This document shows positions 29,908 to 61,423 of a stretch of DNA of 64,000 nucleotides, one piece after another. Position numbers and translations under genes: made by a program. Source of the DNA: Escherichia coli O157:H7 (GTDB lineage: Bacteria > Pseudomonadota > Gammaproteobacteria > Enterobacterales > Enterobacteriaceae); assembly GCF_013167455.1 (NCBI RefSeq), contig NZ_CP038328.1, one strand, 5' to 3'. Below the pieces are notes generated by a model. It saw only the letters and a list, made by a program, of their open reading frames with translations. It had not been told where the DNA came from and made no database searches. Each line of letters opens with the position of its first letter. Position 1 is the first letter of the stretch.

Positions 29908-30146
29908 TTTACACACCTTACGCACAACAAAAGTGTTGCGGTACGCCGGAAAAACGACACGGAGCGTCAGGAAGGGGTCAATGGCCAGTACGCAAATAGT
30001 GTAAGCGTGGAATTTTGGCCGATCTTGACGAAAAGGGGAAGTGGTAAAAACACTTATCATTATAAATGACGGGAGATTTTTTCATCACAGTGTGTAAAAA
30101 TGCGTAATATCACTTTTTGTGTGGTAATAAAAAAGGAGAAAACTTG

Positions 30147-30236
30147 ATGAGCACCGACCTTAAATTTTCACTGGTAACAACGATTATCGTCCTCGGTTTG
30201 ATCGTGGCCGTGGGTTTGACTGCCGCGCTGCACTGA
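30147..30236 (+). CDS. ynhF: Small hydrophobic protein YnhF (29 aa, single TM)
   Basis: ATG 30147 preceded by aaaaggagaa; encodes MSTDLKFSLVTTIIVLGLIVAVGLTAALH; below ORF-track length cut-off. Confidence 0.7.
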   Translation: MSTDLKFSLVTTIIVLGLIVAVGLTAALH

Positions 30237-30401
30237 TTTCCTCTCGAGGGAGCGCGTTCTCCCTCGCATCTCCTTCCTGTTTGTTAGCAAAATGGCAAAA
30301 GTGTTTTCTCTTTTTGTTATTTTCATTTTTTTGTGATTGCTGTCATGCTTTCGCCACTTTAATGAATATCGCGTAATGACGCGAAGAGGTGGAGATAAGG
30401 C

Positions 30402-31716: not shown

Positions 31717-32298
31717 TTATGCAGCGAGATTTTTCGCTACGAATTCCCAGTTCACCAGCGCCCAGAAGTGCTCAAGATAGCCAGGACGTGCATTGCGATA
31801 GTCGATGTAATATGCGTGTTCCCAGACATCAACGGTTAGCAGCGGAGTCGCATCGGTGGTCAGCGGAGTACCCGCGTTAGAGGTTGAAACGATAGCCAGT
31901 TTGCCATCGCTGTTTTTCACCAGCCAGGTCCAGCCAGAACCAAAGTTTTTGATCGCTGCATCAGTAAACTGAGCTTTGAAATCGGCAAAGCTGCCAAAAG
32001 ATGCGGCGATAGCTTCAGCGACTTTTCCAGTCGGTTCGCCACCGGCGTTCGGTGCCAGGCAGTTCCAGTAGAAAGTATGGTTCCAGACCTGAGCTGCGTT
32101 GTTGAATACGCCACCTTCAGAGCTGCGAATAATCTCTTCCAGTGATTTACCTTCAAACGCGGTACCTTTAATCAGGTTGTTCAGGTTAGTGACATAAGTC
32201 TGATGATGCTTGCCGTAGTGATACTCGATAGTTTCCGCAGAAATGTGCGGTGCCAGAGCATCTTTAGCATATGGTAGTGCAGGTAATTCGAATGACAT
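31717..32298 (-). CDS. sodB: Fe superoxide dismutase
   Basis: 193 aa; [32 protein letters not shown]. Confidence 0.97.
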
Positions 32299-32425
32299 TG
32301 CTACTCTCCTTTATTATTAATTTGCATACGTACAATAGCCTTATTGTGCGTATGGATAGGGTAGCAAATTAAAAGGTGAGACAAAAGATGAACTTACCCT
32401 GTTGCCGTAACAACAGGGTAAAGTT

Positions 32426-33241
32426 TTAGCGAAGTGTTTTTGGGGTCATTACCCGGCGAGCGCCAACATAGTGGCGCTGCCAGTAGTCTTCACTGAGAGA
32501 AGTGATTTGAATTTCCTGACCTGTGCGCGGTGACTGAATAAATTTGCCGTTGCCGACATACACGCCGACATGATCGGCTGTACCGCGTCCCTGAGTACGG
32601 AAAAAGACCAGGTCGCCGTTTTTCAGTTCACTACGTTCGATTGGCGCTGCATCGCGCAGGTGATACATTTCATTCGCCGTACGCGGAATACGAATTTTCA
32701 CCAAATCTTTATAAGCGTAATAAACCAGGCCGCTGCAATCAAAACCGGTACGCGGTGAGCTGCCACCCCAACGATATGGCTTACCAATTTGCTGCATCAG
32801 TTTATTCATTGCCACTTTTGTGGCTTTTTGCACCTTCGCTTTGTGTGCGTCGGCAAGGGTTCCTGACGCTGCATTTTTGACTTTCACACAATGCGATTTA
32901 TAGCCCTTACGTTTGGTACACTTTTCGGTAAAGCTGGCTGAGGCCGTTTTATTGACGGTATGTTTGCTGCGAGTTTTGGCGTTTTTAGAAGCGGTAATGG
33001 AAGATTTTTTAACGGAAGAAGCGGTTTTGCTTTTGGTCGTACTTTTACTGGCGGCTTTTTTCGCTGTTTTCTGGGTCTTTTTGGTGGTTGCCGTGCTTTT
33101 CTTTTTATCTGCTTTTTTGGTGATATGAGTGGTAGCAGAACTCTCCCTGGCTTGCTTTGAAGCATGGGCCATAGGCGTTAAAGGCAGGGTGGTAAAAAGT
33201 AAAGCACAGAGCGTGATCGAAATACGGTTTATCCGCGCCAC
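32426..33241 (-). CDS. mepH: NlpC/P60 peptidoglycan endopeptidase MepH (YdhO)
   Basis: 271 aa; signal peptide, K/S/T-rich linker, C-terminal NlpC/P60 motif FDCSGLV...H. Confidence 0.8.
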   Translation of the reverse strand: MARINRISITLCALLFTTLPLTPMAHASKQARESSATTHITKKADKKKSTATTKKTQKTAKKAASKSTTKSKTASSVKKSSITASKNAKTRSKHTVNKTASASFTEKCTKRKGYKSHCVKVKNAASGTLADAHKAKVQKATKVAMNKLMQQIGKPYRWGGSSPRTGFDCSGLVYYAYKDLVKIRIPRTANEMYHLRDAAPIERSELKNGDLVFFRTQGRGTADHVGVYVGNGKFIQSPRTGQEIQITSLSEDYWQRHYVGARRVMTPKTLR

Positions 33242-33575
33242 TGAGCGTCCCTCTGTTAAGGCAGGTCTATCATGCCTGCGTCTGATTTACAAAACTTGAT
33301 GATTCTAATGCATAGAAGAAGAGAAAGTTAATAGCTTTTATTGTTAAAAAATACGTTTCGTTGGCGAGCGCAAAAAAATGCAGCAGTGAAAGCTAAAAAT
33401 GGTCATAAATACGCCAGTTTGCCGTGCATCAGGGAAGAAACGAATATTTGAAATGCAACAAATAGAGCAAAGGGATAAAATAGCAAAAGCGTGATGAAAA
33501 TGTTATTTTCCGATGCCGCACTGACCCGCTACAATGTCAGATTACTGCCGTAAAGAAGTTTGAGGAAGCAAGACA

Positions 33576-33923
33576 ATGAGCACCACTATCGAAAAAATCC
33601 AACGCCAGATTGCTGAAAACCCGATCCTGCTGTACATGAAAGGTTCACCGAAACTGCCGAGCTGCGGTTTCTCTGCCCAGGCAGTCCAGGCGCTTGCCGC
33701 ATGTGGCGAACGTTTTGCCTATGTTGATATTCTGCAGAATCCGGACATTCGTGCGGAGCTGCCGAAATATGCTAACTGGCCGACCTTCCCGCAACTGTGG
33801 GTTGACGGCGAGCTGGTAGGCGGTTGTGATATCGTGATCGAAATGTATCAGCGTGGCGAACTGCAGCAGCTGATCAAAGAAACTGCCGCTAAATACAAGT
33901 CTGAAGAGCCGGACGCGGAATAA
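33576..33923 (+). CDS. grxD: Monothiol glutaredoxin Grx4
   Basis: 115 aa; CGFS active-site motif. Confidence 0.93.
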   Translation: MSTTIEKIQRQIAENPILLYMKGSPKLPSCGFSAQAVQALAACGERFAYVDILQNPDIRAELPKYANWPTFPQLWVDGELVGGCDIVIEMYQRGELQQLIKETAAKYKSEEPDAE

Positions 33924-47333: not shown

Positions 47334-47801
47334 TTAGCGCGGAGAAACGGTCACCTGACTGCCATTGCTGGCCAGTACGACACGTTGGCCCGGAGAGAAA
47401 CGAGTGTTGCCTTGTTTCTGTACCACCATGATGGTATTACCATCGTCTTTACGAATTTCCAGCTCGACACCTTGCGTTTTGTTCATTGCACTCTGTACGC
47501 CCTGACCAGCTACGCCACCTGCAACAGCGCCTGCTGCAGTAGCCAGAGAACGCCCGGTTCCGCCACCAACAGTATTTCCCAGGAAACCACCAAGAACAGC
47601 ACCGCCAATTGCACCGATAACGTTGGAATCATCACCGCCCTGAATCTGTACCGGACGTACGTTAACGATGGTTCCATAGCTGACATTCTGTACTTGTTTC
47701 GCTTCAGAAGCGGTATAAACATCCCCTGACAGGGTGTCGTTATTAACACAACCGACAAGAGACAGACCTACCATTGAAACAACCAATACGCGTTTAATCA
47801 T
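47334..47801 (-). CDS. slyB: Outer membrane lipoprotein SlyB
   Basis: 155 aa; lipobox LVGC; Gly-rich region. Confidence 0.9.
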   Translation of the reverse strand: MIKRVLVVSMVGLSLVGCVNNDTLSGDVYTASEAKQVQNVSYGTIVNVRPVQIQGGDDSNVIGAIGGAVLGGFLGNTVGGGTGRSLATAAGAVAGGVAGQGVQSAMNKTQGVELEIRKDDGNTIMVVQKQGNTRFSPGQRVVLASNGSQVTVSPR

Positions 47802-48073
47802 TGAAAAATCTCCTGTTCACCATGAAACGCCACGCAAGCATCCCTCATGGTCAAAGTATATGGCATATGTGAATCCATGGTTACATGTTCTACCAAATAT
47901 GAGCAAATCATAATGAAAGTAGGATCAACCAATTATAAACAAAACATTCATGATGATTATTGATTTGAAGATAATGTTTTACTACCAACGGTAAAAATCG
48001 GTCATTCCGCATGGTATTCACGAAAAGTTTATGTTTGAGTGTGCGCAAACGTCAGATTGAAAAAGGATGAACT

Positions 48074-58534: not shown

Positions 58535-61423
<2,889 letters not shown>

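Follow-up and report, generated by a model that had tools for sequence, protein, structure and literature searches.

Do the three open reading frames (ORFs) that overlap, in other frames, the part of mepH encoding a Lys/Ser/Thr-rich linker represent genes, or are they by-products of the linker's composition, and what kind of protein segment is the linker itself? The locus lies in a 64,000-nucleotide stretch of the Escherichia coli O157:H7 contig NZ_CP038328.1 (assembly GCF_013167455.1), which we refer to as the window. Here mepH (ydhO) encodes, on the minus strand, the periplasmic peptidoglycan DD-endopeptidase MepH. The three ORFs, one of 93 amino acids (aa) in the +1 frame of mepH and two of 71 and 66 aa antisense to it, were found in the ORF listing exactly where an initial annotation of this DNA, which also quoted the linker peptide correctly, had put them. 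Shadow ORFs in compositionally biased coding sequence are a long-known gene-finding artefact. We conclude, with a probability of about 0.9, that the mepH linker encodes a Lys/Ser/Thr/Ala-rich, probably disordered spacer, and that the three alternative-frame ORFs are by-products of it and not genes.

The composition of the linker is extreme for this window. In 20-residue windows of MepH, Shannon entropy is 2.0-2.5 bits at residues ~36-90 and is above 3 bits again by residues ~91-96, and the low-entropy stretch as a whole spans residues ~36-103. The 64-kb window has 70 stop-free segments of 150 codons or more, and by its 40-residue minimum of 2.26 bits this one ranks lowest (median of the 70, 3.37 bits). 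Residues 28-105 (78 residues) are 81% Lys, Ser, Thr or Ala and 6% hydrophobic, with a net charge of +20; acidic residues are almost absent, and the isoelectric point of residues 28-103 is 11.2. The initial annotation had described a basic low-complexity spacer between signal peptide and NlpC/P60 domain at residues ~40-130; the character and the placement between the two hold, but the range is too wide C-terminally, because residues 104-130 are conserved and not of low complexity. Tandem Repeats Finder, applied to positions 32400-33300 with a score of at least 30, returned no arrays, and the linker contains no repeated peptide of at least five residues; the linker is thus compositionally biased, not repetitive.

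This bias accounts for the open frames. T occupies codon position 2 in 6% of mepH codons 28-105, as compared to 22% in the rest of the gene; a stop in the +1 frame needs T at that position, that is, a hydrophobic residue, which is rare in the linker, and so there is no +1 stop there (0 per 100 codons in the linker vs. 4.6 outside). The frame of the 71-aa ORF has 1.3 stops per 100 codons in the linker vs. 6.7 outside: a stop in this frame needs Tyr preceded by a codon ending in T or C, or His or Gln preceded by one ending in T, and the only such stop in the linker, at T38-H39, is the stop of the 71-aa ORF. The antisense frame that is codon-aligned with mepH, that of the 66-aa ORF, has 2.6 stops per 100 codons both in and outside the linker; stops in this frame need a sense TTA, CTA or TCA codon, the only TCA codons in the linker are those of Ser28 and Ser101, and the 66-aa ORF fills the gap between them, the Ser28 codon being its stop. 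The two remaining frames have 6.4 and 9.0 stops per 100 codons and no long ORF; stops are plentiful in these frames because T-ending codons before Lys or Thr suffice to make them. Since T is rare at position 2 of the codons for Lys, Ser, Thr and Ala, and since Leu, Tyr, His and Gln are scarce, the +1 frame and two antisense frames are left open. As a general rule, coding sequence poor in hydrophobic residues, Tyr, His/Gln and Leu leaves its +1 and antisense frames open. The ORFs here are like known shadow ORFs in being stop-free frames that arise from the codon content of a real gene, without conservation or selection of their own, and differ in that the cause is amino-acid bias, hydrophobic-poor and Lys/Ser/Thr/Ala-rich, rather than high genomic G+C. 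The mepH linker with its shadow ORFs is, in this respect, an ordinary example of an already known kind of feature.

The explanation from composition predicts ORF lengths, and for these we used two nulls in which the MepH protein was held fixed and synonymous codons were either redrawn from the codon usage of the window or permuted within the gene (2,000 trials). No shadow ORF is longer than expected from the MepH sequence under either null (P 0.17-0.90). For the 93-aa ORF it might be proposed that it is a real overlapping gene of Escherichia, expressed as a Pro/Lys-rich small protein from the mepH mRNA. The ORF lies on a transcribed strand, begins with ATG and, at 93-98 aa, is uninterrupted in seven of seven Escherichia alleles, including those of E. 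albertii and E. whittamii; its length, however, is ordinary given MepH, being equalled or exceeded in 17-18% of trials (P = 0.17 and 0.18 with the two nulls), and no purine-rich Shine-Dalgarno sequence precedes it. Relative to E. albertii, E. whittamii and a divergent Escherichia lineage, the majority of substitutions over the span of this ORF are synonymous when read in the mepH frame (synonymous to non-synonymous, 14:5, 15:7 and 18:10) but nearly all are non-synonymous when read in the 93-aa frame (1:18, 1:21 and 3:25). The 93-aa ORF is absent from Citrobacter and Salmonella arizonae; the Citrobacter +1 ORF has only 32 aa, and all alternative ORFs of Salmonella arizonae are short. Truncation of the frame to ~30 aa, with starts other than the ATG, is seen in Citrobacter and in many further genera. 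Its product has no Pfam or NCBIfam match and is absent from a collection of ~15 billion predicted proteins, which records the exact MepH protein for 1000 contigs or more. We regard a gene in the +1 frame as very improbable.

The same results bear on the proposal that one or both of the plus-strand ORFs are real antisense overlapping genes. Both are also present in K-12, as is the 93-aa ORF, the 66-aa product occurs once among the ~15 billion predicted proteins, and the 71-aa frame has a fairly high share of synonymous changes in the three Escherichia comparisons (9:6, 10:8 and 12:10). The last observation needs no selection on the ORF itself: third codon positions of the 71-aa frame coincide with those of mepH, and the synonymous share therefore reflects selection on mepH only. 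The 66-aa frame gives 1:11, 0:10 and 2:13, its start codon is ATG here but GTG in K-12, and the contig that carries its single record in the protein collection is, at 950 bp, too short to assess neighbouring mepH in context. Null lengths equal or exceed the observed length in 86-90% of trials for the 71-aa ORF (P = 0.86 and 0.90) and in 30-51% of trials for the 66-aa ORF (P = 0.51 and 0.30). The sizes and ends of both ORFs differ in Citrobacter and Salmonella, and on the plus strand opposite mepH we found no promoter-like site and nothing comparable to the promoter and terminator matches of mepH itself. The 71-aa product is absent from the protein collection, and neither product matches a Pfam or NCBIfam model. 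We give antisense genes at this locus next to no credence.

Purifying selection in the alternative frames was thus not found in substitution counts among Escherichia, and the starts, ends and lengths of the alternative ORFs vary freely among the 80 species compared, with no conservation of the shadow ORFs outside Escherichia. A PIRT-Seq supplementary table contains annotated mepH only, detected by Ribo-RET, and does not mention the alternative frames. The initial annotation had taken the three ORFs for artefacts, and the evidence bears it out: the lengths are typical of the nulls, selection and conservation are lacking, no family is matched, and the products are almost never called as proteins. 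The outcome is a clean negative, in which three ORFs of an ORF track are dismissed on quantitative grounds.

The conclusion that the ORFs are by-products of the linker leaves the linker itself to be characterized. In a charge-hydropathy plot the linker falls far on the disordered side, with a mean hydropathy of 0.357 and a mean net charge of 0.263. Structure prediction, which the initial annotation had suggested as a check of disorder, gave a concordant result: AlphaFold2, with a 37-species enterobacterial alignment as input, predicts no secondary structure in residues 1-103 and a predicted local distance difference test (pLDDT) score <50 for residues 6-102, followed by two strands, residues 104-109 and 117-122, that form a beta-hairpin and have the highest pLDDT of the model, a helix at residues 129-150, and the catalytic domain. 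In the solved structures matched, the N-terminal region of MepH is absent, except for LytE chain 8i2e_B, which aligns over residues 51-263. Two points weigh against the inference of disorder. The charge-hydropathy rule discriminates weakly, since it places even the catalytic domain slightly on the disordered side. The AlphaFold2 model as a whole is of low quality (mean pLDDT 50.5, and only 50-67 in the catalytic domain) because the alignment is shallow, so that the contrast between linker and domain is modest. The AlphaFold2 model accordingly supports disorder only modestly, and composition and evolutionary behaviour are the stronger arguments. From these arguments the MepH linker (residues 28-103) is most likely, by prediction, an intrinsically disordered, polycationic segment.

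Evolutionary behaviour was assessed in 80 enterobacterial loci obtained in one scan of species-representative genomes. In 79 of the 80 mepH is intact and encodes 252-293 aa, and all 79 intact orthologues differ in length by multiples of three. The only interrupted mepH, in Citrobacter amalonaticus AUH_CA_2023_1 (locus L065, positions 1501-2332), has a frameshift and a stop inside the linker, with a match of 832 nucleotides, a length that three does not divide; the gene may be a genuine pseudogene, or sequencing of a homopolymer in the A-rich linker may have introduced an error. Among the 79 distinct orthologue linkers, length ranges from 61 to 98 aa, the number of Lys and Arg from 18 to 25, the number of Asp and Glu from 1 to 6, net charge from +15 to +22 and charge density from 0.19 to 0.28, and the composition is always Lys/Ser/Thr/Ala-rich. 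The linker is kept in every orthologue, even the shortest, at 61 aa, retaining it. Non-Escherichia orthologues are ~29% identical to this MepH in the linker, as compared to 87% in the catalytic part. We conclude that the linker is, on comparison of the orthologues, a segment that evolves fast by substitution and in-frame slippage indels, with composition and charge density kept.

Alignment of the orthologues also divides MepH into five parts (Table 1). By inspection, the first 27 residues have Arg3 and Arg6, a hydrophobic core, and Ala-His-Ala before Ser28; they have no lipobox, the residue before C12 being a Leu unfit for one. In the 80 species A27 never varies and S28 is conserved at 99%, which fits cleavage after Ala-His-Ala, and the segment is a putative cleavable Sec-type signal peptide. 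In the first residues of the mature protein, 28-48, conserved positions are S28, Q30, A31, R32, H39, K42, K47 and K48 (K42 invariant; S28, R32 and H39 conserved at 90% or more), and the commonest residue accounts on average for 0.63 of a column, vs. 0.42 in the core of the linker; this segment may be, as far as conservation goes, a short linear motif. Between linker and catalytic domain lies a Cys-X9-Cys element, in which C108 and C118 are invariant in 80 of 80 species and R111, K112, G113 and K115 are at least 96% conserved; in the periplasm, C108 and C118 could form a disulfide in the predicted hairpin. Residues 128-152 are a conserved helix leading into the NlpC/P60 domain. What is mildly new here is descriptive: the anatomy of the linker, its conserved charge, the invariant Cys-X9-Cys element, and two length alleles in E. 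coli.

The length alleles came from a comparison across strains, which the initial annotation had suggested in supposing that the spacer may vary in length; variation is found both across Enterobacteriaceae, in the 61-98 aa range given above, and within E. coli. E. coli mepH occurs as alleles of 816 and 828 nucleotides (271 and 275 aa), which differ by the four residues QKAS after residue 56. The long allele accounted for 10 of 29 and 21 of 59 sampled full-length genes (~36%; evenly spaced rows of ranked full-gene search results), and these two lengths were the only ones seen. At the indel the long allele has the sequence CCAGAAA-GCCAG-CCAGAAA, of which the short allele, the one in the window, keeps one CCAGAAA. 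The long form, lacking the perfect repeat, is found in other Escherichia species, and hence the short allele is the derived one; it lost 12 nucleotides between 7-bp direct repeats, as slippage would produce. Between the short allele in the window and one long allele there are 4 differing sites, and between it and the short allele of K-12 there are 10; the K-12 allele in turn is 6 sites away from another long allele. The 271-aa deletion allele thus occurs on two mepH haplotype backgrounds (loci L002, L003 and L006), each nearer to a long allele than the two are to one another. The numbers are small, and suggest recurrent deletion or intragenic recombination at the indel.

An indel between direct repeats that has possibly arisen more than once is the kind of observation that would be expected if the linker were a tandem-repeat contingency locus, in which slippage switches MepH on and off or alters it stepwise. 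The linker, however, has no tandem array and no repeated peptide of five or more residues; the 59 and 29 sampled genomes contain two length classes only, both in frame; and, as noted, the intact orthologues all differ by multiples of three. A contingency locus is, on this evidence, scarcely credible.

We turn to what a compositionally conserved, variable linker might do. The peptidoglycan-metabolism protein LpoB has a long, flexible, low-complexity N-terminal segment before a small globular periplasmic domain; it has an outer-membrane anchor, from which its linker allows the domain to reach through the sacculus. MepH, whose linker is far more basic, has no anchor, so that a simple "reach" role as in LpoB does not apply. 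The paralogue MepS (Spr) is like MepH in being an NlpC/P60 DD-endopeptidase that has a disordered segment before the catalytic domain and is a substrate of NlpI/Prc (for MepH: PMC8996183). The disordered N-terminus of MepS binds the adaptor NlpI, and the hydrophobic residues L24, F31, L34, V35 and V38 of this segment fold onto NlpI (PMC11211486). MepS is unlike MepH in being a lipoprotein with a disordered segment of ~36 residues; MepH has a putative cleavable signal peptide without a lipobox, a polycationic linker of ~75 residues of which 6% are hydrophobic, and an extra Cys-X9-Cys hairpin. A flexible polycationic tail would keep a soluble MepH near anionic envelope polymers (peptidoglycan carboxylates, membranes), and the linker may also offer an unstructured entry or docking handle to the NlpI/Prc system that degrades MepH. 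Most likely, given a composition and charge that are kept in a variable sequence, the tail would work via its bulk properties. Two points count against assigning it these roles. The MepS-NlpI contact uses hydrophobic residues, which the core linker of MepH lacks; if docking on NlpI occurs, residues 28-48 or the Cys hairpin are therefore better candidates. And the net charge of the linker scales with its length (r = 0.63), which an unselected but biased spacer would match.

The second point raises the alternative that the linker is a neutral spacer, Lys/Ser/Thr/Ala-rich through mutational bias and slippage, whose charge and length have no role. The linker has very low sequence identity, frequent indels and relatively more non-synonymous changes than the rest of mepH, and the 4-aa deletion segregates at ~64% in E. 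coli, on two haplotype backgrounds, all of which a neutral spacer would accommodate. A neutral spacer does not readily account for the retention of the linker, which is lost in none of the 80 species, for acidic residues and charge density staying within the ranges given above in all of them, for the conserved positions within the first 20 mature residues, or for the distribution of variable sites: among seven Escherichia alleles, variable sites in the linker number 5, 9 and 21 at mepH codon positions 1, 2 and 3, and this dominance of third-position changes indicates some purifying selection on the protein frame. We think a neutral spacer unlikely, although it is a serious candidate. A tail working by bulk properties is the preferred reading. 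It may further be proposed that the tail, the semi-conserved first 20 residues and the Cys-X9-Cys hairpin together constitute a dedicated module for targeting or regulation, not a passive spacer; such a module could act by electrostatic binding to peptidoglycan or anionic membranes, or by docking on NlpI for turnover by Prc. We hold this proposal tentatively and consider it rather doubtful; if it were true, the common 4-residue deletion would tune the level or activity of MepH between E. coli lineages. In the MepH/YdhO literature searched we found nothing on the linker, its disorder or overlapping genes, and no description of the Cys-X9-Cys element; the N-terminal region of MepH is not characterised there, and the anatomy in Table 1 and the two alleles can guide studies of targeting and degradation.

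Table 1. Coordinates of features of the mepH locus, as positions in the window.
Feature	Positions	Strand	Description and basis
mepH (ydhO) coding sequence	32426..33241	minus	GTG start, 271 aa plus stop; ORF listing and RefSeq annotation
Putative signal peptide, residues 1-27	33161..33241	minus	MARINRISITLCALLFTTLPLTPMAHA; read from sequence and conservation in 80 species
Semi-conserved mature N-terminus, residues 28-48	33098..33160	minus	Per-column conservation
Hypervariable Lys/Ser/Thr/Ala-rich linker core, residues 49-103	32933..33097	minus	Entropy, indels, predicted disorder
Cys-X9-Cys element, residues 104-122	32876..32932	minus	FTEKCTKRKGYKSHCVKVK; conservation and AlphaFold2 beta-hairpin
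Catalytic region, residues 128-271	32429..32860	minus	Leading helix 129-150, then NlpC/P60 domain; Pfam and PDB alignments
Shadow ORF, 93 aa, ATG start	32884-33165	minus	+1 frame of mepH; product Pro/Lys-rich; overlaps MepH residues 26-120
Shadow ORF, 71 aa, TTG start	32913-33128	plus	Antisense; overlaps MepH residues 38-110
Shadow ORF, 66 aa, ATG start	32960-33160	plus	Antisense, codon-aligned with mepH; overlaps MepH residues 28-94
Surviving copy of 7-bp direct repeat CCAGAAA	33068..33074	minus	Site of the 12-nucleotide (4-codon, QKAS) deletion in this allele
Sigma-70-like promoter match upstream of mepH	33302..33331	minus	TTAACT, 18 nucleotides, TAGAAT; consensus match only
Intrinsic-terminator-like hairpin directly after mepH stop	32393..32422	minus	13-bp stem, then T run; strong

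The identity of the gene is secure. RefSeq gives the name peptidoglycan DD-endopeptidase MepH to a 100% identical sequence, that of E. coli 2017C-4109. MepH here is identical to the K-12 protein MepH/YdhO (b1655) at 270 of 271 residues without gaps, the difference being T95 here and A95 in K-12, and the K-12 gene is the same in length, neighbours (lhr, grxD, sodB) and presence of the three shadow ORFs. In the window, mepH is flanked by sodB (31717-32298, minus strand) and grxD (33576-33923, plus strand), with lhr beyond grxD, and comparison with K-12 and RefSeq places it in the orthologous context, the order lhr-grxD-mepH-sodB being kept. In the catalytic region, Pfam NLPC_P60 (PF00877, peptidase family C40) matches residues 153-263 over the whole length of the profile (1-105), with 125.8 bits (cut-off 23; E = 8e-37). 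The protein matches 39 NlpC/P60 chains in the PDB (best E = 2e-23), and its alignment with solved NlpC/P60 structures, that of MepS/Spr among them, begins at residue ~132-151 and runs to the C-terminus. C169 (in DCSG), H224 and Q236 are invariant in the 37-species alignment; Q236 is the third catalytic position and aligns with a His of 7cfl_A. MepH passes no NCBIfam model, the best being the MepS equivalog (85.7 bits vs. a cut-off of 186), and for this reason orthology rests on identity to b1655 and synteny. Endopeptidase activity of K-12 MepH is reported in literature cited in PMC11211486 and PMC6301998, and MepH is one of three redundantly essential, cell-wall-expanding DD-endopeptidases of E. 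coli according to literature cited in PMC11211486.

The gene is nearly universal in the species, being present in 5425 of 5426 complete E. coli genomes. E. coli TUM2805 (NZ_CP128950.1; 4.09 Mb), one of the few genomes in this set of 5,426 that lack a near-full-length mepH, has a 114-nucleotide C-terminal remnant that abuts grxD (locus L004, positions 2503-2616) and is annotated as an incomplete pseudogene. The level of MepH is held low by Prc/NlpI proteolysis (PMC8996183). The GTG start codon (33239-33241) is conserved in 80 of 80 orthologous loci, and this conservation may be connected with the low level noted in that work. The promoter match in Table 1, the only promoter-like site found, is to be read in light of the finding that sigma-70-like sites in this sequence are no commoner than in shuffled sequence. 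Rfam has no RNA family within mepH or the spacer between mepH and grxD. Just downstream of the mepH terminator, in the sodB leader, positions 32269-32373 (minus strand) have a sub-threshold Rfam match to the SodB 5' untranslated region thermometer (31 bits vs. a gathering score of 98).

Other features of the window include a probable second case of the phenomenon seen at the mepH linker. A long minus-strand frame at 58538-60889, in a gene that could be rsxC, has a Glu/Lys/Ala/Arg-rich low-complexity stretch at 59426-59545, and opposite it, on the plus strand at 58581-59402, is a 274-codon stop-free Ala-rich frame that is probably a shadow ORF. Positions 30000-30239 (plus strand) match the enterobacterial small RNA STnc550 in Rfam with 234 bits (gathering score 48), the 5' end of the match being set by the start of the search at position 30000. 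Finally, a 160-codon minus-strand frame at 47337-47816 has a Gly-rich low-complexity stretch (GAIGGAVLGGFLGNTVGGGTGRSLATAAGAVAGGVAGQGV) whose entropy is the fourth-lowest of the window, and is reminiscent of a glycine-zipper membrane protein.

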